DNA from: an uncultured Acetobacteraceae bacterium
GTDB taxonomy: Bacteria > Pseudomonadota > Alphaproteobacteria > Acetobacterales > Acetobacteraceae
Direction: 5' to 3'
DNA length: 64,000 nucleotides
Assembly (NCBI GenBank): GCA_964242575.1
Contig: CAXTCN010000012.1
Coordinates: 3,204-67,203 of the forward strand
This document shows, piece by piece, positions 15,336-33,574 of the stretch. The notes beneath the pieces were generated by a model. It saw only the letters and a list, made by a program, of their open reading frames with translations. It made no database searches and was not told the origin of the DNA. A program made the translations under genes and the position numbers. Each line of letters starts with the position of its first letter. Position 1 is the stretch's first letter.

Positions 15336-15938
15336 TTAATCCGCAAGAGCTATAAATTTTTCCCTCCGTTCAGGCCAAGTCGGGCTGAGGACAATGGAAG
15401 CATAGGGTTCCGGTATAGCTAACAAACGAGCAACTTCGGACGGCGTCATATGCTTCTCAACGAGGCGTGCAATTGCTTCTTCAGGACACAATACGGCCAA
15501 AGCCTGGTAAGTAGCAACTTCCTCGAAAAGAGCCATAGGACTCATTTCTGTGTCAACAAACCCATTGAGAGACATATTATTTAGAAGTTCTTCGCCCTTC
15601 TCGCGTGAATTTACTTTTAGCTCTTCTGGATCAAGTGCATGTATAAGCTCTTTTACACAGATAAGTCTTTGCCAATCTAGAGCGCTATTTCTGTTATATC
15701 TGACAACACAGTGAACAATACTTGCCCCATACGTAAGGGTATTCTCATAGATAATAATGTTCCCACGTAGATGCCCTACTGGGCCGTCGAATGGGGATAT
15801 GATGATACGATCATAGTATCCCCATTCGACTATTTGATTCCGGATTTCAGCGACTTCGACTGGAACTTTTGTAAAACGCGAAAACAGATTAACTAGTCTT
15901 CGGACAGTTATGCACTCGCCTTTGGTAAGAAAAGCCCT
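15336..15938 (-). CDS. 200-codon open frame, ImmA/IrrE-like with KExxH in place of HExxH; no canonical start in the first 121 codons
   Basis: AT-rich DNA, yet open from the TAG at 15941-15939 down to the stop at 15336. The first ATG/GTG/TTG is at 15575 (track ORF). WQRLICVKELIHAL aligns to the rqrFtlaHElgH metallopeptidase motif. Confidence 0.4.
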   Translation of the reverse strand, partial: RAFLTKGECITVRRLVNLFSRFTKVPVEVAEIRNQIVEWGYYDRIIISPFDGPVGHLRGNIIIYENTLTYGASIVHCVVRYNRNSALDWQRLICVKELIHALDPEELKVNSREKGEELLNNMSLNGFVDTEMSPMALFEEVATYQALAVLCPEEAIARLVEKHMTPSEVARLLAIPEPYASIVLSPTWPERREKFIALAD

Positions 15939-20085: not shown

Positions 20086-20240
20086 CGCACCAGCCAGGCC
20101 GGGACGCTGGACAGCATAGGCTTGCCCAGGGTTCGGGCGATTGGGCTTGTGAGCGCCGGATACTTGCAACGAACGGCATTGCTGGTTGTGCGATGCTGGC
20201 GGGCACGCACTTCCGGGTGGGTGCGTGATGCGGATGATGC

Positions 20241-20264
20241 GCGTGAGCGTGAGCGTGAGCGTGA
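20241..20264. repeat. Hexanucleotide microsatellite (GCGTGA)x4
   Basis: Four perfect tandem copies, flanked by degenerate copies, about 100 bp upstream of the large ORF. Confidence 0.8.
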
Positions 20265-20365
20265 GGCGCAAGTGGGCGGACGGCCGTCATGCGATAGATG
20301 ATCCGGTGCCTGCACAATCATAAGTTGCTGTCGCAAAAGTTCGTCAGCAGCTTGACAATTCCGAG

Positions 20366-23300
20366 TTGTTTATGGTGCGATACCGCAATGAGGCCTATGG
20401 CGGGCCGCTCGCGTCGATAGCCGGCCGCGTCAGCGCTGGCAGCAGGGTTATGGTCATGGGAGCGATTGCCGAGTACGCCAAGGCTGCAGCTGCCGTTGCA
20501 AAGGATGCAGCCGCCGTTGCAGCCGTTGTCGCCAAGGATGCAGCAGCCGTTGCAGCCGTTGCTGTTGGGCTTTCAGTGCTGGCCTGGGTGATTGGCGTTG
20601 GCATTATTAGGTTGTGGCGCGGCAAGCGGGCTCCATTCGGTCTTGCGCCCTTTGTGGCTGCGCCTGAGTTGGATGCCAGCATCGGACCTATTGTCCGCAT
20701 GGCGCTCCTTATGGAGTTACGGCGGGCGTCCGCACTCTGGCATCAGCAGGTCCGTAAGCCACGGGATGGGAACGGGGGAAATGGCAGCGGGAACAAGGAA
20801 CTGCTCAGGATCGAGATAGCGACCCGGGGGCAAGTTCGCGCGATGCCGAGCTCAAGCTTGTCGCTCGTTTCCACTCCTTGGTCGAGCGGCACGGCCAGCG
20901 ACTACGAGAGCCTAAGGGGCAGATGGGACACATTGCCCGACGCTGCAGTCAGCCGCGTTTTGCCGCAATGGAGTGAGCCGAAGTCGTCTCTGCTTTCAAG
21001 CCATGTCTCGGCGCCCTCTTCCAAGTTCGAGAGCGACGCGATCGAGATTGGAAGCGCTGGCACGAAAATCGCCGTGCTGAAGTTGGCCAAAGCGCTGTGG
21101 AGGTGGAAACCGGACAAGTACGAACGCGAGGTTGAAGGATACATGGGGTGCCTCGACGGCCACCTGCGCGCGACCGCAGTGGTAAGGCCAAAAAGGTTCA
21201 TTGTTCGCACGCGTTCCCGGCTGGGGGAGCGCATCGGTCGCGCGTGCCGCTGGCTGGGAAGGCTGGGGGTTCGGGCGTGTCGTCGGCTGGGGGAGCGTGT
21301 CGTTCGCGCGTGCATCTGGCTGGGGGAGCGCATGGATCGCGCGTGCCGCGGGCTTGGAGAGCGCATGGATCGGGCGTGTTCCTGGTTCGAAGGGCCGGTG
21401 GTCCGGGCCTGCCGCTGGCTGGGGACGCGCATGAACTGGGCGTGCGTCTGGTTGGAGGGGCCGGTGGTCCGGGCCTGCCGCTGGCTGGGGGAGCGCATGG
21501 ATCGCGCGTGTTCCTGGTTGGAAGGGCCGGTGGTCCGGGCCTGTCGCTGGCTAGGGGAGCGCATGGACTGGGCGTGCATCTGGTTGGAGGGGCCGGTGCA
21601 TCGGGCCTGCCGCTGGCTCGCGGGGCACATCGTTCACGCGCCTCGCTGGCTGAAGGGGCGCCTAGTTCGTGCGCGTCGCTGGCTGGAGGGGCGCATAGTC
21701 CGCGTGCCTCGCTGGCTGGGTTTACTCAGGCCGCAGGGGGTTATGGGCCACCATGGCATCAAGGCCTGGGAGACGCGGGAACATGAGTGCGCGGCAAGGC
21801 TGGTGCATCCGGTGAGCGTCGCGGAACGAACGGGGGGACCGGGCGGGGCGGCGAGGGCGGCTGGACCCGATAATGCCGGGAAGGCCACGTCGGCCGACGT
21901 TGTTGAGAGGGCCGCCGAGCTTGGAGTCGAGCTGGCCTACAGGATACTGGCTGGCGGGACGGACGCTGGCTGGCAGGCGGACAAGCATTACGTCGCCGCC
22001 GTGGCGTGCTACAACCTTGGCGTAAGCAACGGCAAGAGCGAGCCACTGCGCCAAACTCTTGAACGCGTGAAGGAAATACGCAGGATCAGCCCAGGTTACG
22101 AACGCCTGCCGAACCTGATGATCGCAGTCTCCGACGAGCTGCTCAAGTTGCAGGACATCGAAGGCGCAGAGCAGGCGCTGCTTGCCGTGACGTCCGACTA
22201 CGACGCGCCCGGCAACACAGGTGCGGCAAGAACGCGGGTATGGGAGCGATCTGAGCGTGAGCGGATATACGAAAGCGAACGGATAGAGATTTTTTCGCGT
22301 CTAAGTTCGATTTACATCCGAAAAGGCAACCGCAAGGCAGCCAACTCAGCGCTGAAGCAATCCGAAGGTCTGGTGGAACGCAGTCCGAACAAAGCGGATT
22401 ATAATGATTACGTGAGGCAAGTAATAAGCCCAATTTCGGCTGCGCTCATGGCCTTGCCGAACGAAGACAGTGGTGAGACAGAAGATAACGACAGAATAAA
22501 AGCACAGAAAATTGTTGAGAGTTTGGTAACGGATATATACTCTGAAACTTCAAAGCCTATTTTCATCATACAGAAAAACAACGATAGTGAAATTAAACAA
22601 GGTCTGCGTGATATTGAAATTGCTGATCAGTTAGCAAAAATACACTTCAATGCAGATGCACTCGCAAGATACTTGAGTGCAGAGAGCACGCTTGGAAAGT
22701 TCGACCAGTTCAAAAATAATATGAGGTATATCCACTGGCGTCGTGGTGTTATGCATCAATTCACTTATCTTGAGGGTCGTCGCAAGGCCGAGGCTTCAGC
22801 CTTGGAATTTAGAAAGATTTGGAGGAAGTTGAGTGTGCATTTCGAACTGAAAGATAGCAGTGCAAAGAAAAAATTCGACGAGCTGTTTGAACAAGCGCCA
22901 AACTGGTTGCGTAACACAAAGGATTGGAGGAGAGAGTCCATACAAATAACGAAGATCGACGAGCACCGTAAAAAGGAACAACTAGCTCGCCTTAATGGAC
23001 AGCGAGATCGCCTTATTAGAAGCTTTGATGAATGTGCTCTAATTATAGCGCCAGCCAAAGAGGAAGAAAAAGACAAAGCAGAACAAGAAACAAAGACGTC
23101 GGAGTCTGTCGAGTGGTTAACTCAAGCAAGAACCTGCCTCGAAGCATTCTTGGAAGAATCTAATCAGGCCAAGACGGGTTTCAGTGATGCAGAGGACGCT
23201 TTCAGAGAAGCTACAATAGAAGCTGAAAGAATAGATCTGCTGCCTGGCCGGCGGCGCAAAAGAGTATTCGATTTATTTAACAAAAATAACAGAATCAGCG

Positions 23301-24496
23301 AAGAAAAACAAGAGAGCGATAAGTGGTACGTAGTCGAAGCATGGAATGATTTGGGGGTATTGCTTTCTGCAACAGATCGCCTTCCCGATGCTAAAGAAGA
23401 ACTCAATAAGGCATCACGCAAGGTAGCGACGGAGTGGGATATACAGCATAACCTCGCCTTAGTGGAAAACAAGATTCTTGAAACGTATGGCGCTAAGCGG
23501 ACCGCCGATGCACCGAAACAGGCTAGTGACAACAAGAGCCCAACCACCTTTGGCAAGGTTGTCGGACTTTACCATGACGCCATAACGCTCGCGCCCGCCG
23601 AAGCGCTCCCAAGGATCAACCTGGCTCAGCTTCTTGAACGCACCGGCAAGCACGAGGCTGCCCGGTTGCATTTTGCCGCTGCCCAGGCAAACGCCGCCGC
23701 GAGACGCGGCGTCGATGCGCTGCACGACTTAAAGCAGTGCATCTACGGCCAGGCCCGCGTTCTCGAAAGGCTTGGGCGCTTTAAGGAGGCGGCGGACATC
23801 TTGGAGGCGCATCATACCGTTGAACCGGAAAACGCGGGCATCGAACTTTACCTGGGACTACTGAAACTTAGGCAGGGCATGGTCACTGACGGAGACGGCC
23901 ATGAGCAGGCGCTCATTCACGTCCGGCGTTCACGCGACGTCGCCGCGAGCAGCAAGACGAGCCACGACGATGAACTGATCGAGCGTCTGGCTGATGAAAA
24001 TGAAGGGTTCATCTATCGCTGCATGGGCTTGCCCCGGATAGCTCGATCATACTTCGAGCGTTGCAAAGACGAGAGCGCCTATGCGTGCGCAAGCCTGTCG
24101 TTCATGGCCTATGAGGCTGAAAAGCTGGACGATGAGAAGAAGTATAGAACGCAAGCCTCGAAGCTGAGAGATGAGAAAAAGAGTGCGAACTTAAACACGG
24201 GCGGCAACCAGAACAAAAACGCGTGCGCCGAGAACTACATTGAAGCGTGCTTCAATACCTTGATTGGAGACACTGACAAGGCTTTCGAGTCTCTTGAGAA
24301 AGCGCTGATCTGGCAGCCCGGAATACGGGAGTGGTGCCGGGTGGACCCTGATTTCAAGCGCATCGCTCATACCAAGCGCTTCCAGGAGTTGCTCGGGCCA
24401 AAAAGAAAACCGGCCAAGGAGAACGGCGAGCTCGCAGTCCCGCCCTCACCGCACCAGCCAGGCCACAACGGCGCCCAGGAAGGAGAAGCCCGCTAA
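20366..24496 (+). CDS. Very large membrane-anchored repeat protein with TPR-like helical C-terminal region
   Basis: Uninterrupted 1376 codons across GC-rich and AT-rich DNA. One TM segment (GLSVLAWVIGVGIIRLW), 15 x 11-aa repeats, and a C-terminus ending ...AFESLEKALIWQPGIREWCRVDPDFKRIAHTKRFQELLG, typical of TPR proteins. Start is uncertain (TTG 20366, ATG 20372 or 20450). Confidence 0.65.
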   Translation: MFMVRYRNEAYGGPLASIAGRVSAGSRVMVMGAIAEYAKAAAAVAKDAAAVAAVVAKDAAAVAAVAVGLSVLAWVIGVGIIRLWRGKRAPFGLAPFVAAPELDASIGPIVRMALLMELRRASALWHQQVRKPRDGNGGNGSGNKELLRIEIATRGQVRAMPSSSLSLVSTPWSSGTASDYESLRGRWDTLPDAAVSRVLPQWSEPKSSLLSSHVSAPSSKFESDAIEIGSAGTKIAVLKLAKALWRWKPDKYEREVEGYMGCLDGHLRATAVVRPKRFIVRTRSRLGERIGRACRWLGRLGVRACRRLGERVVRACIWLGERMDRACRGLGERMDRACSWFEGPVVRACRWLGTRMNWACVWLEGPVVRACRWLGERMDRACSWLEGPVVRACRWLGERMDWACIWLEGPVHRACRWLAGHIVHAPRWLKGRLVRARRWLEGRIVRVPRWLGLLRPQGVMGHHGIKAWETREHECAARLVHPVSVAERTGGPGGAARAAGPDNAGKATSADVVERAAELGVELAYRILAGGTDAGWQADKHYVAAVACYNLGVSNGKSEPLRQTLERVKEIRRISPGYERLPNLMIAVSDELLKLQDIEGAEQALLAVTSDYDAPGNTGAARTRVWERSERERIYESERIEIFSRLSSIYIRKGNRKAANSALKQSEGLVERSPNKADYNDYVRQVISPISAALMALPNEDSGETEDNDRIKAQKIVESLVTDIYSETSKPIFIIQKNNDSEIKQGLRDIEIADQLAKIHFNADALARYLSAESTLGKFDQFKNNMRYIHWRRGVMHQFTYLEGRRKAEASALEFRKIWRKLSVHFELKDSSAKKKFDELFEQAPNWLRNTKDWRRESIQITKIDEHRKKEQLARLNGQRDRLIRSFDECALIIAPAKEEEKDKAEQETKTSESVEWLTQARTCLEAFLEESNQAKTGFSDAEDAFREATIEAERIDLLPGRRRKRVFDLFNKNNRISEEKQESDKWYVVEAWNDLGVLLSATDRLPDAKEELNKASRKVATEWDIQHNLALVENKILETYGAKRTADAPKQASDNKSPTTFGKVVGLYHDAITLAPAEALPRINLAQLLERTGKHEAARLHFAAAQANAAARRGVDALHDLKQCIYGQARVLERLGRFKEAADILEAHHTVEPENAGIELYLGLLKLRQGMVTDGDGHEQALIHVRRSRDVAASSKTSHDDELIERLADENEGFIYRCMGLPRIARSYFERCKDESAYACASLSFMAYEAEKLDDEKKYRTQASKLRDEKKSANLNTGGNQNKNACAENYIEACFNTLIGDTDKAFESLEKALIWQPGIREWCRVDPDFKRIAHTKRFQELLGPKRKPAKENGELAVPPSPHQPGHNGAQEGEAR
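21221..21715 (+). repeat. 15 tandem 33-bp (11-codon) repeats inside the large ORF
   Basis: Units LGERMDRACSW / LEGPVVRACRW alternate, giving a 66-bp super-repeat in the centre with degenerate edges. Confidence 0.9.
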
Positions 24497-24583
24497 TATC
24501 AGAATGGCGCGCAACGCGCCGCCCTGTAGCGTGGGGCCGAGCACGGTGCGTAGGACATTGTCGCTGGGATTGTTGTTGGCCAT
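24446..24583 (-). CDS. Possible 45-aa membrane peptide
   Basis: Below the track cutoff. ATG at 24583 is preceded by GAAGGAA. MANNNPSDNVLRTVLGPTLQGGALRAILILAGFSFLGAVVAWLVR. Overlaps the 3' end of the large ORF by 51 nt. Confidence 0.3.
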   Translation of the reverse strand: MANNNPSDNVLRTVLGPTLQGGALRAILILAGFSFLGAVVAWLVR

Positions 24584-24744
24584 CGGGAATTCCTTCTGCG
24601 AACGCTGGATACAGGCCGCCGCGCCGGTTGTGAAGCGCAGCGCCCATGCAGCATTAACGCTTTAGCAAGCTATCCCTTGTAGGTTTAGCTGGACCAAGGT
24701 GATACACAAAGCCAGGTTCGGAACACGGGGTGCGACAACCGGCC

Positions 24745-27928: not shown

Positions 27929-28948
27929 ATGGCGAGGTTGCCGGGTCAAGTAACACTGACTTTGGCTTGGCTCCTGGCTTTTCAAGGAAAGAGCGAGAGA
28001 GGAGTTTACTTGGTATTGTGCGCTTATGTGGATGATAGCGGTCGAGGAAATAAGCCCGTCTTCGTTTTAGCAGGACTTCTTGCTGATACCGCTTCCTGGG
28101 CCAGGTTTTCCGACGATTGAGATGAAGAACTAAAGAAAGAGCCGTTCAAAAGATACAGCAAAATGCAAGAGTATATGCGGCTTGATATATGGGATGATCC
28201 GACATCGCCGCAAAGGTTAGCAAAGCTTTATGCACTTCAAAGCATTATGAACAAACACGTAGAATGCGGATTTTCAATTTCGTTTCTCAGTGGCGATTAC
28301 AGGGAAATCTTCAAAGAGGCAGTTCCAAAACTCTGGCGTTCGGAATATCACTTTGCTGTTAGAGCTTTCATTTCTGAACTTCTTAATCACGAATACGAAA
28401 GCGGGCGAACGAGTAAGATCGACTTCATTTTCGATGAGCAGACTAACGAGAGCGCCGCTGTTGAGATTTCATGGAAGCGTCTAAAGCAAGGCGGTGCCTC
28501 GAGTAGATTTAGGAGAAGGATGGGATCTATCACTTACGGGTCCGACCAACACCTTAGGCCCCTTCAAGCTGCAGATATGATGGCTTGGCTATCTAGAAGG
28601 ATGTCTGCTGACATGCTTGGGGATGCCGGACAACTCTGGCCTGAAAACGCAGGTGAGCCACTTTACGATGCCAGAATTCTTAACATGGGGAACCCGAAAA
28701 TGGTTCTGGAGGCGATCCAGGCAGGGGACGGAACCCCCGCAGACGCGCATGCCATGGCTCTTAGGTTGTCCTCTAAAGCTTGGCACGCAGGGCGCGGCCT
28801 AAACATACCCATGAGAAACAGGTTTATCGATCGCGAGCAGCTGGAGATGCACCGAAACCGCTTAGTGGCAGCGGGTGAGCTTGTGCTCAAGCCAGATACA
28901 CCGCGCCTAACTAGGCGCCAGCGCAAGCAATTATCTCAAAATCAATGA
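27929..28948 (+). pseudogene. DUF3800-like gene interrupted by one in-frame TGA
   Basis: Track ORFs 27929..28120 and 28163..28948 are in the same frame, and the only interruption is the TGA at 28118-28120. The N-terminus LCAYVDDSGRG...VFVLAG is the DUF3800 signature. The AT-rich islet sits directly upstream of the terminase genes. Confidence 0.6.
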
Positions 28949-29185: not shown

Positions 29186-29404
29186 ATGCCGACGCCGCTG
29201 GAAGTGCTGCTGCGCGTGATGAACCGGAAATGGACGGAGGGGGACGAGGACGGGGCGGTGCAGTTGGCCAAGGCCGCCGCGCCGTATGTCCACCCGCGGG
29301 CGGCGGCGCGGGGGTCAGTGGATTTGGCGGAAGTGGGGGACGATGAGCTGGAACGGATGCACGGCGGCGACGGAGCGGGCGCTGCGGAGGGACCTCCGGA
29401 CTAG
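29186..29404 (+). CDS. Short terminase small-subunit-like protein
   Basis: GGAGG RBS. PLEVLLRVMN...AAKAAAPYVHPR resembles the C-terminal motif of small terminase subunits of alphaproteobacterial phages. Only 72 aa, overlapping the TerL start. Confidence 0.35.
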   Translation: MPTPLEVLLRVMNRKWTEGDEDGAVQLAKAAAPYVHPRAAARGSVDLAEVGDDELERMHGGDGAGAAEGPPD

Positions 29405-30740
29405 CTTCGCGCGCTGGGCCGGGTTCGCGTTGGCGCCGCTGGGCCAGGCGCCGGCGCGGCACCACCGGCTGATGATCCAGGAGCTTGAGGCGGTGGCGCG
29501 CGGGGATTGCGACCGGCTGATGCTGCTGATGCCGCCTGGTTCGGCCAAAAGCACCTACGCCAGCCTGCTGTTCCCGCCGTGGTTCATGGCCCGGCAACCT
29601 GGCGCGCAAGTCATCGCCGTGAGCCATACGGCGGCGCTCGCGGAGGCGTTCGGGCGCGGGGTGCGCGGGGCCGTCACGCAGCACGGCGCGCGGCTGGGCG
29701 TGCGGCTGGACGGCGCAAGCCGGGCGGCGGGGCGGTTCGGGACATCGGGCGGCGGCGGCTATTACGCGACCGGGGTGCGCGGGCCGGTGACCGGGCGCCG
29801 GGCGGATTTGCTGCTGATCGACGACCCGGTGAAGTCCCAGGCGGAGGCCGACAGCGCGCCCCTGCGGGACCGGGCGTGGGACTGGTATCGCTCGGACCTG
29901 GTGACGCGACTGCGTCCCGGCGGGCGGATCGTGCTGGTGATGACGCGCTGGCACCCGGACGACCTCGGCGGACGGCTGCTGGAGGCGGCCGAGCTGGGCG
30001 GGGAGCCGTGGCGCGTGGTGCGCCTGCCGGCGCTGGCGGAGGGCGCCGACGCGCTGGGCCGCGCCCCCGGCGAGGCGCTGTGGCCGGAGTGGGAGGGCGT
30101 GGCCGCGCTGGAACGGAAGCGCCTGGCGGTCGGCGAGCGGGCGTTCGAGGCGCTGTTCCAGCAAAACCCGCGCGTGCCCGGCGGACGGCTGTTCCAGGTC
30201 GGGCGCATGGCAGTGGCGGACCAGCCGGCGGAGGGCGTGAGCGTGCGGGCCTGGGATTTGGCCGCGAGCGCCGGCGGCGACTGGACCGCCGGCGTGCGCC
30301 TGGCGCGCGGCGACGCGGGCGCGTGGCAGGTGCGCGACGTGGTGCGGCTGCGCGGCGGCCCGGAGGACGTGGTGCAGGCCATCCTGCGCACCGCCGAGCG
30401 GGACGGCGCCGGCGTCGCCATCGGCTTGCCGCAGGACCCCGGGCAGGCCGGGCGCAGCCAGGTCGCGTTCCTGACGCGGGCGCTGGCGGGCTGGCGGGTC
30501 ATCAGCGGGCCGGAAAGCGGGGCCAAGGCGACGCGGGCCATGCCGGTCGCGAGCCAGGCGAACGCGGGCAACGTCAGCGTGTTGCGCGCCCCGTGGAACC
30601 GAGCTTTCCTGGAGGAGTTGCAGGACTTCCCGGGCGGCGCGAAGGACGACCAGGTGGACGCCCTGGCGCGGGCGTTCGGGATGCTGCTGGAGGCGCGGAC
30701 GCCGGCGCAGGTGCGGCGGATGGACTGGGGGTTGCGGTGA
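29343..30740 (+). CDS. terL: Terminase large subunit
   Basis: Walker A LMPPGSAKST, Walker B ADLLLIDDPVKS, coupling motif VMTRWHPDDL, and C-terminal nuclease DDQVDAL. Confidence 0.9.
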   Translation: MSWNGCTAATERALRRDLRTSFARWAGFALAPLGQAPARHHRLMIQELEAVARGDCDRLMLLMPPGSAKSTYASLLFPPWFMARQPGAQVIAVSHTAALAEAFGRGVRGAVTQHGARLGVRLDGASRAAGRFGTSGGGGYYATGVRGPVTGRRADLLLIDDPVKSQAEADSAPLRDRAWDWYRSDLVTRLRPGGRIVLVMTRWHPDDLGGRLLEAAELGGEPWRVVRLPALAEGADALGRAPGEALWPEWEGVAALERKRLAVGERAFEALFQQNPRVPGGRLFQVGRMAVADQPAEGVSVRAWDLAASAGGDWTAGVRLARGDAGAWQVRDVVRLRGGPEDVVQAILRTAERDGAGVAIGLPQDPGQAGRSQVAFLTRALAGWRVISGPESGAKATRAMPVASQANAGNVSVLRAPWNRAFLEELQDFPGGAKDDQVDALARAFGMLLEARTPAQVRRMDWGLR

Positions 30741-31712
30741 ATGCGGCGTCGGGCGTTGCTGCTGGGCGTGCTGGCGGCGGGGTGCGCGGGGGATGGCCCG
30801 GGCGTCGCCGCGGACATTGAGGCGGCGGCGGACACGGAGCTGCGGCGGCGTCCCGCGTTCTACGTGAACGGCGAGGCGCGGGGCTGGCTGGTGCGGCGCG
30901 ATGGCCATGAGGCCGGGCTGCTGTGGGGCACCTGGCATGTGGCATACGACGACGCCACGGTGATGCCGCGCGCCGTGCGGGCGCGGTTCAACGCCAGCGC
31001 CAGCCTTACGGTCGAGCGGCTGCTGTCGCGCTCGCAGTACGCGGCGCTGCGCGGCGCGCAGGAGGGCGCAGTGCGGCGTCCGGACCCGTCGGCGCTGTCC
31101 CGGCTGGGCGCGGAAACCTTGGCGGCGCTGGCGGAGGCCGGGGTGGACGCGGGCGACGCCGGGCTGAGCCTGCTGGGCTTGGCGGAGGCGGTCAGCGCCA
31201 ACGCCATGACGGAGCCGGCGCCCATGCTGCCGCACACGGGCATCGTGGACGCCAACCTGGTCGGGTTCGCGCAGAGCATCGGCGTCCCGGTGCGGGCGCT
31301 GGAGGCCGAGGACGGCTACGTTGACCCTTTATATCAAGAGCCGAACGGCCCGGCCGCGGCGGCTCTGCTGCGCCAGGTGCTGCGTCAGGGCCAGGACGCG
31401 CGGGCGTTCCGTCGCGCGCTGCGCTCGTTGTACGCGGCCGGCCGGGTGGACCGCGTGCTGGCCGCGACGGTGGGCTGGCGGGCGGAACCGGCGGACCTGG
31501 CGCGCGACGACGCGGCGCGCGACGGCCTGTTGACCCGGCGCAACCTCGCCTGGCTGCCGGGGCTGGAGCGGACGTTGCGGGAGGACGGGTTCCACTTCGT
31601 GGCGTTCGGCGCCGGGCACTTGATGGGGGATGACGGGGTGGTGGCGCTGTTGCGCGGGCGCGGGTGGGACGTGGCGGCGTGCGTGGCGGATCGGTGCGGG
31701 TTGCCAGCGTGA
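30741..31712 (+). CDS. TraB/GumN-family lipoprotein (cargo)
   Basis: Lipobox LLGVLAAGCAG. ...LLWGTWHV... and ...FVAFGAGHLMGDDGVVALLRGRGWDV are GumN-family end motifs. The ATG abuts the TerL stop (TGAATG). Confidence 0.65.
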   Translation: MRRRALLLGVLAAGCAGDGPGVAADIEAAADTELRRRPAFYVNGEARGWLVRRDGHEAGLLWGTWHVAYDDATVMPRAVRARFNASASLTVERLLSRSQYAALRGAQEGAVRRPDPSALSRLGAETLAALAEAGVDAGDAGLSLLGLAEAVSANAMTEPAPMLPHTGIVDANLVGFAQSIGVPVRALEAEDGYVDPLYQEPNGPAAAALLRQVLRQGQDARAFRRALRSLYAAGRVDRVLAATVGWRAEPADLARDDAARDGLLTRRNLAWLPGLERTLREDGFHFVAFGAGHLMGDDGVVALLRGRGWDVAACVADRCGLPA

Positions 31713-31861: not shown

Positions 31862-32206
31862 ATGGTGGATGATCGTGAGAATTGCCGCGAGGCATGGGTT
31901 GCGGCAGGGTTCGGCGTGGAGTTTGCCTTGAAGGCGTTAATTCTCAAGCGTGAGAGATTGAACGCGTGGCCTTCGCTGGAGCATCGCCCAGACCTCCATA
32001 TCCATAACCTCAAAAAGCTGTTCAAGATCGCGGGGCTTGATCCGAACGCCGCTCCGACAGACGTGAAGCCAGCGATCCGGCAGGTTTTGGATTGGAACCG
32101 GAATCACGACTATGTGGCCAGGCCGATGCCGCGTAAGGTGGCCCGGTCGATGGTTGAGGCGGCGTTCGGGCCTTCGGGGGTGGTGGAGTGGTTGAAGTCT
32201 CTTTGA
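31862..32206 (+). CDS. Small helical protein, HEPN-like pattern (weak)
   Basis: GFGVEFALKALILKRE...HNLKKLFKIAG...WNRNHDYVARP follows the HEPN helix pattern, but no clear Rx4-6H motif is present. The frame is open upstream to 31778 without a canonical start. Confidence 0.4.
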   Translation: MVDDRENCREAWVAAGFGVEFALKALILKRERLNAWPSLEHRPDLHIHNLKKLFKIAGLDPNAAPTDVKPAIRQVLDWNRNHDYVARPMPRKVARSMVEAAFGPSGVVEWLKSL

Positions 32207-32721
32207 CCTTGGACCCAAAGATCAGCGCCGCCGCCGAACGCGCGCTTGACAGCCGGCGCATGCAAGCCGGCAAGGAGTATCTGGACGCGCTGCATCGGCT
32301 GGGCCTTGAGCCGGATGTGTTTTGCTGGATTTACGACGCAGTCGAGGACGGGATTGAACTTGCCATTGTTACGTCCATCGCAGAGCGTATTGGCAGCCTG
32401 GACATCTACAAGCTCTTGTTCCGTGCTTATGAGGCTGCGGCGACGCCACGCGACATAGACCCGTTTATTGTATCCATCTATGGTCCCAACTCGTTCTATG
32501 GTGCCATGCTGCGCGAGCACATTCGCACTCTGGCGGCAGACGGAGCGTTCTCCGATCCTGGAAACGCCACGCGGTTCACGACAGTCATGGAAAACTCGGC
32601 CGAGCTTAAAGTCATGCTTGCCCGAGGTGTGTATGCGAGGGGAGACACTCGCAGGTCAGCAGCCCAAGATTTGAAGAGATGGAGCCGTTTTAAGCAGAAC
32701 GTGGAAGCGCTGGCTGCGTGA
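32188..32721 (+). CDS. Hypothetical protein coupled to the preceding gene
   Basis: GTG 32188 or TTG 32203 (TTGA overlap with the upstream stop). 170-177 aa with no recognised motif. Confidence 0.45.
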   Translation: MVEVSLTLDPKISAAAERALDSRRMQAGKEYLDALHRLGLEPDVFCWIYDAVEDGIELAIVTSIAERIGSLDIYKLLFRAYEAAATPRDIDPFIVSIYGPNSFYGAMLREHIRTLAADGAFSDPGNATRFTTVMENSAELKVMLARGVYARGDTRRSAAQDLKRWSRFKQNVEALAA

Positions 32722-32959
32722 AGGCGGCTTTCTCAAAGTATTGACAATCGAGGCGCCTGGCCGTGCGGCCAGTGGTCCTTTCCAACCCGCGACGCCGGAT
32801 GCGCCAGCGCCGCACCCGTAGCGGCTCGGCGCAGTGCCCTTATCTGGCATCCGGCGACAGTATGGTCGTGTGCGGCGCGTGCGCGCGACCACTGTGGGTT
32901 GCTGGCATTACGGTACGGCCGGCAGGCTGTTTCGGAACCACTTTCAGGCAGATGGATTG

Positions 32960-33574
32960 ATGGCGTCACGCCGGGATTACAAGGCTGCACTAAGCAATCT
33001 CCACAGGCTCCGACGAGTTGGGCCGGGCACCATGCCGCTGTTCAAGCAGCTACATCAGTGGATTCAATCTCTTGACGTGCATCATAGCGATGACCGAGAG
33101 GCAACGTTGATTGCGTTTACCTTCCTGGAACAGTCTCTTGAGATTCTGCTGTTGCAGCATTGGAGTCTGGTGGGGTCAGAACGAGGTTCGAAGCTATTTA
33201 ATTCGGCTGGTGAGCGGGATGCGGTGCTAGGTTCTGCATATTCTCGGGCCCTAATGGCAGAGTGTTTGGGATTGATAAGCAATAATACCTTCAAAGACGT
33301 ACAAACTGTAAACTTTATTAGGAACACATTTGCCCACTCAGGACACTCGATTAATTACGGTAATGATGATATTGAGACTTTATCCCACCTGAATACGATG
33401 GGCCAGTTTGGAGAAAGACACACAATAACGCTTGAGAATGGGTCTGCTCTGTTCAATCTTAATCTGAGTACTGCCAGGTCGCGTATTTTCTCCTTTATTC
33501 TGTTCTTTTCTCTTTACTGCACAGTCTCCCCTGCTGACGACGGTGAAAAGCCGTTTAAGTCTGTGTTCTCTTAA
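32960..33574 (+). CDS. MtlR-like HEPN-domain protein
   Basis: AVLGSAYSRALMAECLGLISNNTFKDVQTVNFIRNTFAHS matches the MtlR/HEPN helix pair, including R-N-x-x-A-H (Rx4H). ATG 32960 is chosen within track ORF 32834..33574. Confidence 0.6.
   Translation: MASRRDYKAALSNLHRLRRVGPGTMPLFKQLHQWIQSLDVHHSDDREATLIAFTFLEQSLEILLLQHWSLVGSERGSKLFNSAGERDAVLGSAYSRALMAECLGLISNNTFKDVQTVNFIRNTFAHSGHSINYGNDDIETLSHLNTMGQFGERHTITLENGSALFNLNLSTARSRIFSFILFFSLYCTVSPADDGEKPFKSVFS

Follow-up and report, generated by a model that had tools for sequence, protein, structure and literature searches.

Tandem repeats of 11 residues marked by a tryptophan at a fixed position are documented in phage tail tape-measure proteins (Belcaid et al. 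2011, PMC3271669), and proteins carrying the eCIS_core domain (PF13699, formerly DUF4157) are associated with extracellular contractile injection systems (eCIS) (PMC8213781). Here we describe an array of the same general design in a 64,000-nucleotide stretch of DNA from an uncultured Acetobacteraceae bacterium (contig CAXTCN010000012.1 of assembly GCA_964242575.1; hereafter, the window), where fifteen 33-bp units at 21221-21715 lie inside a long open reading frame (ORF) for a tetratricopeptide repeat (TPR) protein. Overall, we believe it very probable that the array is a translated, lineage-specific, in-frame minisatellite that extends the linker of this rare TPR protein with a helical, amphipathic and very basic segment. 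At the same time, the array is real but fairly ordinary: as judged from its sequence, it fits the widespread Trp-anchored pattern [ILV]-G-[ED]-[KR]-x-x-x-A-x-x-W, and cysteine in 12 of the 15 units is its only unusual trait.

Organization of the repeat array

Cut from 21221 and translated, the 495 bp of the array give fifteen tandem 33-bp units whose peptides are identical to those listed in an initial annotation made from the sequence alone. The encoded segment of about 165 residues (aa 286-450 of the ORF) contains 34 Arg, 15 Trp and 12 Cys, with a net charge of +20. The annotation had also counted Ala-Cys in twelve units and Trp at position 11 in thirteen; both counts stand (Ala-Cys in units 1-12; for Trp, the exceptions are Arg in unit 2 and Gly in unit 4), but Ala-Cys occupies positions 8-9 of the unit rather than 9-10. 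Tandem Repeats Finder, the check it had proposed for the DNA, recovers the array over 21217-21719 as nested periods of 33, 66, 99 and 132 bp, with the top score of 460 at period 132. There is no other large tandem array within the window, and the unit core sequences, sought elsewhere in it, match inside the array only (0 matches expected from dinucleotide shuffles). Inverted repeats were sought in the array and none was found; because of this, and because no units are scattered through the rest of the window, we reject a REP-like (repetitive extragenic palindromic) or regulatory DNA repeat.

The units fall into three groups, all on the + strand. Units 1-4 (21221..21352) form a diverged 5' edge (LGERIGRACRW, LGRLGVRACRR, LGERVVRACIW, LGERMDRACRG). 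Units 5-12 (21353..21616), the array core, are two 132-bp (44-residue) blocks, with Tandem Repeats Finder periods of 66 and 132, in which LGERMDRACxW alternates with LEGPVVRACRW, and units 13-15 (21617..21715) form a 3' edge lacking Cys (LAGHIVHAPRW, LKGRLVRARRW, LEGRIVRVPRW). The core is homogeneous, units 5-8 and 9-12 being identical at 119 of 132 positions (~90%) and the LEGPVVRACRW-type units at 31 of 33 bases, while the edge units have only 16-30 of 33 bases in common with other units (17-24 for unit 2). Pro occurs in units 6, 8, 10 and 12, that is, once per 22 residues. The recent expansion and 22-residue super-repeat proposed in the initial annotation are borne out by the nested periods and by the identity of the blocks, and the period in fact reaches 44 residues. 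With ~10% divergence between blocks, the expansion is young, not brand new.

The array is translated within a membrane-anchored TPR protein

The full ORF comprises 1376 codons (20366..24496, + strand) when counted from TTG 20366, the earliest start available to it; ATG 20450 and ATG 20456, which both have AGCAGGG ahead of them, are likelier starts. Its predicted product is a single-pass membrane-anchored TPR protein. The sole predicted transmembrane (TM) helix, from a hydropathy scan, spans aa ~62-82 (20549..20611, + strand) and is followed by RGKR. Beyond it lie two conserved N-terminal blocks separated by a variable, probably disordered stretch: a juxtamembrane block, FGLxPFVxAPELDxxIGxxVRMxLxMELRRA (20627..20740, + strand), and a second block, DAIxI...KIAVLKL...WKP...EVxGHVRCxDGRLR (21035..21196, + strand), which ends just before the array. 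The TPR-rich C-terminal region of ~850 residues (21896..24493, + strand) matches Pfam TPR models, with TPR_8 and TPR_2 above their cut-offs and TPR_12 at 30.0 against a cut-off of 30.1, and it closes with a TPR end-of-group domain at 24239-24394 (+ strand; NCBIfam NF047558 TPR_END_plus, aa 1292-1343, E 6e-14, 51.7 bits against a cut-off of 32). The host protein thus carries both the TPR matches and the terminal capping domain by which a TPR protein is recognised.

An exhaustive phmmer search with aa 1-460 against 1.84 billion representative proteins returned two relatives covering about aa 55-285: P0002 (956 aa; E 1.8e-18, query residues 55-280 against P0002 residues 7-226) and P0008 (1030 aa; E 1.5e-9, N-terminal match). 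A fragment, P0026, aligns with both of these and the ORF over the juxtamembrane block, and the host family has three full-length members and one fragment in that collection. In a three-way alignment, P0002 (38% identity) and P0008 (30%) are colinear with the ORF over the N-terminal region and the whole TPR part, where homology resumes after the array, and both show a gap exactly at aa 286-450, which is the array. They share with the window protein the N-terminal TM helix, the two conserved blocks and the long TPR region ending in TPR_END_plus, as well as a GC content lower than that of the surrounding DNA and variable gene neighborhoods; they differ in having ~20 Leu/Arg-rich residues where the window protein has 165 and in lacking a second insertion at residues ~797-960 of the ORF. 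Word-index protein searches, whether with the full ORF, an alignment or P0002 as query, recovered nothing beyond the query's own entry.

The public gene model for this locus, P0001 (917 aa, 100% identical, 67% of the ORF), starts after the array, at an in-frame ATG (21743..21745, + strand) with a Shine-Dalgarno (SD)-like AGGGGG just upstream, and omits 459 residues: the TM anchor, the two conserved blocks and the whole repeat. If this start were the real one, the array would be untranslated regulatory or structural DNA upstream of a 917-aa gene, which is the outcome the initial annotation had said would overturn it (a start downstream of 21715). The gene caller's choice of 21743, the SD-like sequence and the near-absence of stops from all three forward frames of the GC-rich array speak for such a reading, but homology flanking the array overrules the model. 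The segment upstream of the ATG is homologous to the N-termini of P0002 and P0008, where it is fused directly to the TPR part, and since these contiguous relatives join both conserved halves, the array must be read through. Moreover, no stop interrupts the ORF frame in the 459 codons that lead up to 21743. Over the first 285 of these (20366-21220), which precede the array, each of the other five frames has 3-11 stops, and none of 20,000 shuffles stays open. An Rfam search gave nothing credible, and neither an inverted repeat nor a promoter-like site was found near 21743. On this combination of homology and frame evidence, the array is translated in the frame originally given, and the untranslated reading, which we consider scarcely credible, is essentially refuted. 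The internal ATG with its AGGGGG could nonetheless give an additional, shorter product lacking the anchor.

Codon-level statistics agree with the ORF frame. Within the array, GC at third codon positions (GC3, 0.84-0.86) exceeds that at first (0.70) and second (0.61) positions, the order found in the genes of this genome, and the ratio of nonsynonymous to synonymous polymorphism among units (pN/pS) is 0.55 in the ORF frame and 1.0-1.35 in the remaining frames apart from one. That one is an antisense ORF at 20902-21630, whose wobble position coincides with that of the ORF frame; its pN/pS of 0.71 is worse and it lacks homology support. It was set aside, as were the other reading frames of the array, which stop counts, GC3 order and pN/pS reject.

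The ORF as a whole is a compositional mosaic. The genome is ~73% GC, with GC3 near 0.92 in its genes, and the ORF ranges from 38 to 72% GC: ~0.61 in the N-terminal part, 0.72 in the array and 0.38-0.45 at 22250-23500, especially at 22754-23245; the P0008 gene has a similar mid-gene GC dip. A small in-frame tandem duplication (20480-20521, 21 bp x2, encoding AKDAAAV x2) lies just before the TM helix, and a (GCGTGA)4 microsatellite occupies 20241-20265 in the intergenic region upstream of the ORF.

Origin of the array and possible selection among its units

Because P0002 and P0008 both lack the array, it is a lineage-specific in-frame expansion that either arose locally or was inserted. No tandem repeats were found in the homologous genes, where the linker consists of ~20 Leu/Arg-rich residues (LLLPHWVPHLLRHLLTGRRSP in P0002, FGRLASRLLLPRRRSP in P0008). 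MAFFT places these linkers, very short segments, on the last, Cys-less units of the array (LKGRLVRARRW LEGRIVRVPRW), and this placement suggests that the array grew by amplification of an ancestral linker.

An array of this origin might be no more than a neutral, recent minisatellite tolerated in a flexible linker, without a function of its own, an alternative that we regard as rather unlikely. Its absence from both relatives is what neutrality would lead one to expect, and the same ORF contains the 20480-20521 duplication and the second large insertion, which suggests that the gene tolerates length changes. What speaks against neutrality is the pattern of variation. The units have diverged by 10-40% and still keep L1, R7, A8, C9 and W11, the changes there falling mainly on third positions, and pN/pS is lowest in the ORF frame. 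Among units 1-12, variation at these conserved residues is mostly at third positions (15 versus 8 cells), as opposed to 18 versus 42 cells at the variable residues (Fisher p 0.005, although the cells are not independent). In addition, the units fit an 11-residue pattern that recurs in unrelated proteins, which would be unexpected from random amplification of a linker. A more conservative test for synonymous excess, in which every distinct nucleotide variant enters only once, is non-significant, as neutrality would predict, and we return to it below.

Predicted structure and topology

The initial annotation had taken the 11-residue period as the mark of an amphipathic helix, and AlphaFold2 helices, the hydrophobic moment and the fit of the units to other 11-residue repeats, ones that the Pfam Apolipoprotein model matches below threshold, all support this. 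Run on aa 231-480 as a single sequence, AlphaFold2 predicts three long helices over the array (aa 285-338, 344-424 and 427-454), with a predicted local distance difference test score (pLDDT) of 74-90 over the first ~100 array residues and lower values beyond them. The hydrophobic moment of the array is 0.46 and peaks at 98.2 degrees per residue, which corresponds to three turns per 11 residues. For the N-terminal region, an AlphaFold2 model from a 4-sequence alignment was unusable (mean pLDDT 36.6).

The same annotation placed the array next to the TM anchor, and here it was wrong: the TM helix ends near aa 82 and the array starts at aa 286, ~200 residues on. The flanks of the window TM helix carry a net charge of -1 before and +3 after it, and in the ORF, P0002 and P0008 together the values are -1 to 0 before and +3 to +5 after. 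By the positive-inside rule, these flank charges in all three relatives suggest an N-out, C-in topology, so that the bulk of the protein and the array are probably cytoplasmic.

The cysteines

The unusual trait of the array is its regular series of cysteines. Ala-Cys is invariant in units 1-12, where the Cys codons (8 TGC and 4 TGT, the latter in units 2, 5, 9 and 10) differ only synonymously, while position 9 of units 13-15 is Pro (CCT), Arg (CGT) and Pro (CCT). The CGT codon of unit 14 is one transition from TGT, so that a single mutation, once copied, can account for the regular cysteines; most likely, they began as a single founder change from Arg (CGY) to Cys (TGY) that the amplification then multiplied.

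In a different explanation, which appears improbable to us, the cysteines are themselves the selected feature, and paired helices, in a hairpin or a dimer, would align them as sites for metal (Cu, Zn or Fe-S) or for redox sensing. The codons for R-A-C vary almost only at third positions, even in the diverged unit 2, and this mostly synonymous variation is what keeps a selected thiol or metal ladder possible. Three turns per 11 residues would also line up all of the cysteines along the margin of the non-polar face, in a single stripe, and AlphaFold2 gives two long helices with a short break, for which helix-turn-helix packing has to be assumed. At the same time, several observations count against it. 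The array is absent from both relatives and so lies outside the core function of the family; each unit has one Cys, pairs of the CxxC, CxC or Cys-His kind are absent, units 1-11 contain no His, and cysteines 11 residues apart on one helix would be ~16.5 A from each other in standard helix geometry. A single helix with this spacing cannot chelate metal, and nowhere does the array bring at least two Cys/His ligands within a few residues, as Cys-based metal-binding repeats do. Pfam and NCBIfam scans of the ORF matched no metal-binding family, and among the longer proteins with this repeat pattern none has Cys at that position. The proximity of the Cys codon to the Arg codon of unit 14 means that amplification alone explains the regular spacing. 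The disulfide zippering envisaged in the initial annotation is unlikely since the array is probably cytoplasmic, where disulfides would not be expected to form.

A metal or thiol role of the cysteines is possible and unsupported. In its most specific form, with the R-A-C-x-W units of paired helices building a ladder of ~12 thiols, flanked by Arg and Trp, that binds metal ions or senses oxidants at the cytoplasmic face of the membrane, we think it distinctly improbable.

Repeat class

The initial annotation was also open to refutation by a known repeat family, and this applies in part, through the Trp-marked 11-residue repeats of tape-measure and eCIS_core proteins. Apart from the relatives described above, the phmmer matches, which concern aa 285-452, have E values of 2e-14 to 1e-3 and form two groups. 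The first comprises large proteins whose own 11-residue repeats have Trp in register (for example IGEKAQAAREW, LGEKVDGARTW and IGDKAGKAGSW), several with an eCIS_core domain and one a phage minor tail protein (PhageMin_Tail). The second comprises short ORFs that resemble translated minisatellites.

A position matrix was built from 70 reference units, chosen for their likeness to the query. The window units fit it in register at +4.3 bits per unit, compared with -12 to -23 out of register, and with the Trp column ignored none of 5000 within-unit shuffles reaches the observed score. By type, the LGERMDRACxW units score 7-13 bits. The window array has the tandem 11-residue period with a fixed Trp (or Phe) that characterizes the class, in the same register as the reference proteins, and by the same, partly circular, matrix it shares an aliphatic residue at position 1, Gly/Asp at 2-3, Lys/Arg at 4, an aliphatic residue or Ala at 5 and Ala at 8. 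The resemblance is confined to the repeat: neither PF10145 nor PF13699 matches the ORF, nor do the PHROGs families, so we do not take the host for a tail tape-measure or an eCIS_core protein.

The Trp-anchored class, [ILV]-G-[DE]-[KR]-A-x-x-A-x-x-W, is populous in large eCIS_core and other proteins (P0013, P0006, P0003, P0004, P0010), which have no Pfam model at threshold over these repeats and either sub-threshold Apolipoprotein matches or none. It may merit a family description of its own.

Genomic setting of the host gene

The nearest genomes are metagenome-assembled genomes of uncultured Acetobacteraceae, with 74-80% identity for the major facilitator superfamily (MFS) transporter that neighbors the ORF. 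When the ORF was compared by tblastn with 80 loci of Acetobacteraceae and other relatives, neither a match nor a syntenic counterpart was found. The gap between the MFS transporter and a downstream GT2 glycosyltransferase gene, which spans 20086-24729 in the window, is ~100 bp and empty in two of these loci (L014 and L020), and in four others (L001, L002, L003 and L011) it holds a ~330-aa secreted HExxH (HEIGHLLGF) protein with a PEP-CTERM-like tail; the 4.1-kb TPR ORF occupies it in the window only. Since the 80 loci have no relative of the ORF, it is an accessory gene at a variable site.

The two relatives stand in other company. P0002 has as neighbors Vsr, a DNA methylase, a GHKL ATPase (HATPase_c_3) and a PP_RS20740-family gene (neighborhood at L081, 3874-9890), and P0008 a Phd/YoeB toxin-antitoxin pair, HSP20 and a ricin-type lectin (neighborhood at L082, 7737-8257). 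Judged by their gene content, these neighborhoods look mobile- or defense-like. PADLOC returned 0 families at E <= 0.1 for the ORF, P0002 and P0008, and nothing was found in plasmids, in viral contigs or in JGI metagenome contigs, the last searched both with the protein and with a back-translated FGLxxFVxAPELD pattern.

Elsewhere in the window, other ORFs of low GC (0.44-0.60) lie at 15336-15938 (- strand), 28163-28948 (+ strand) and 32188-33574 (+ strand); apart from one weak DUF3800 match they have no Pfam match, and they resemble further accessory insertions. At 29286-31712, an isolated large-terminase gene (Terminase_6N/6C) precedes a TraB/PrgY/GumN-family gene, a pair that is also present in L002 (17791-21249) and may be a remnant of a gene-transfer agent or prophage.

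Discussion

We favor a model in which a short, basic linker rich in Leu and Arg originally joined the membrane-proximal N-terminal region to the TPR region and was brought to 15 units in this lineage by stepwise amplification, first of 33 bp, then of 66 and then of 132. The ~165-residue product would fold as long amphipathic alpha-helices, with a non-polar stripe made of W11, L1, M/V5, A8 and C9 and a strongly basic face made of R4, R7 and R10. Most likely, it would serve as a cytoplasmic helical spacer or stalk and so make the tether from the membrane anchor to the TPR platform longer. The Arg/Trp helix may, in addition, dock on an anionic surface, for which the inner leaflet of the membrane is the most plausible candidate.

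Several points weigh against this model. The gene is found on one contig only, and the copy number could be mis-assembled. The AlphaFold2 model is alignment-free, with a mean pLDDT of 64, a predicted template modeling (pTM) score of 0.41 and pLDDT values of 53-70 in the Pro-containing units, and a Foldseek search with it gave nothing significant, only generic long helical hairpins (E >= 0.12). The LEGPVVRACRW units fit the repeat class weakly, at ~1.5 bits, and the matrix test is partly circular, its reference units having been picked for their resemblance to the query. Matches to the reference repeats reach an E value of 2e-14, and yet periodic, low-complexity matches of this kind can arise by convergence. 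Finally, the permutation test on distinct variants shows no synonymous excess (13 of 42, against 11.7 expected; P 0.34), from which it follows that the selection signal rests on counts inflated by shared descent.

Regardless of what the array does, its recognition has practical consequences. The gene model needs correcting, as 459 residues have been cut off P0001, and the case illustrates that gene models in high-GC genomes can come out too short where a gene of atypical composition contains an internal ATG with a good ribosome-binding site. The array also shows cleanly how a protein can be lengthened when a minisatellite in a linker grows stepwise and in frame. If the cysteines are functional, they would define a new metal- or redox-active helical repeat; should a thiol ladder prove true, it would be a new cysteine-bearing 11-residue coiled coil acting as a switch on novel and very rare membrane-anchored TPR scaffolds whose genomic surroundings are variable and resemble defense islands. 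If the cysteines are not functional, the array still has value as a TPR tether of naturally altered length. The host family, which is uncharacterized and found at variable genome sites, is of possible interest for the mining of accessory and defense islands.

Comparison with known 11-residue repeats

Among the closest described repeats are those of the tape-measure proteins (PMC3271669), with which the window array has in common the 11-residue period, the Trp at a fixed position and a copy number that varies by unit duplication. The likeness extends to finer detail in P0011, the example of this type that we found, which carries PhageMin_Tail (PF10145): it has a 22-residue super-repeat (VKQHVIDAAGW LKQHIMWTLGW) in which every other unit has a second Trp, at position 7, like LGERMDWACIW of the window. 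The window host, however, is a predicted membrane-anchored TPR protein rather than a tape-measure protein, and its array differs in having Cys at position 9, in being strongly basic and in giving no evidence of a length-measuring role.

The eCIS_core-type examples are P0003, P0004 and P0007, and P0010 has the same WxG[ED][KR]xxxAxx repeats with no PF13699 match. Here the unit sequences themselves are similar, with LGEKVDGARTW, IGERISGATEW and LSERVKAAEDW in P0004 beside LGERMDRACRW, LGERIGRACRW and LGERVVRACIW in the window, at phmmer E values of 2e-14 to 2e-9 and with the register-specific fit to the matrix. These repeats, rich in Ala, Lys and Asp, are roughly neutral and have R, G or A in place of the Cys of the window array, and an eCIS_core domain is absent from the window ORF.

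A further resemblance is to the exchangeable apolipoproteins A-I, A-IV and E (PF01442), which share the 11/22-residue period, a Pro every 22 residues as in the array core, and a moment near 98-100 degrees. The polar face is zwitterionic in the apolipoproteins and almost all Arg in the window array, and the window protein is bacterial and probably cytoplasmic. PF01442 (gathering score 90 bits) does not match the window ORF even at E <= 1, while it touches the related eCIS-type repeats below threshold. The apolipoprotein resemblance is thus one of design only, that of amphipathic helices of 11/22 residues punctuated by Pro.

Taken with the unit sequences, these comparisons suggest that the window array converges on, or joins, the Trp-anchored 11-residue design of tape-measure and eCIS-associated proteins. 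What is new here is the Cys at position 9, the Pro-punctuated super-repeat of 22/44 residues and the strong basicity.

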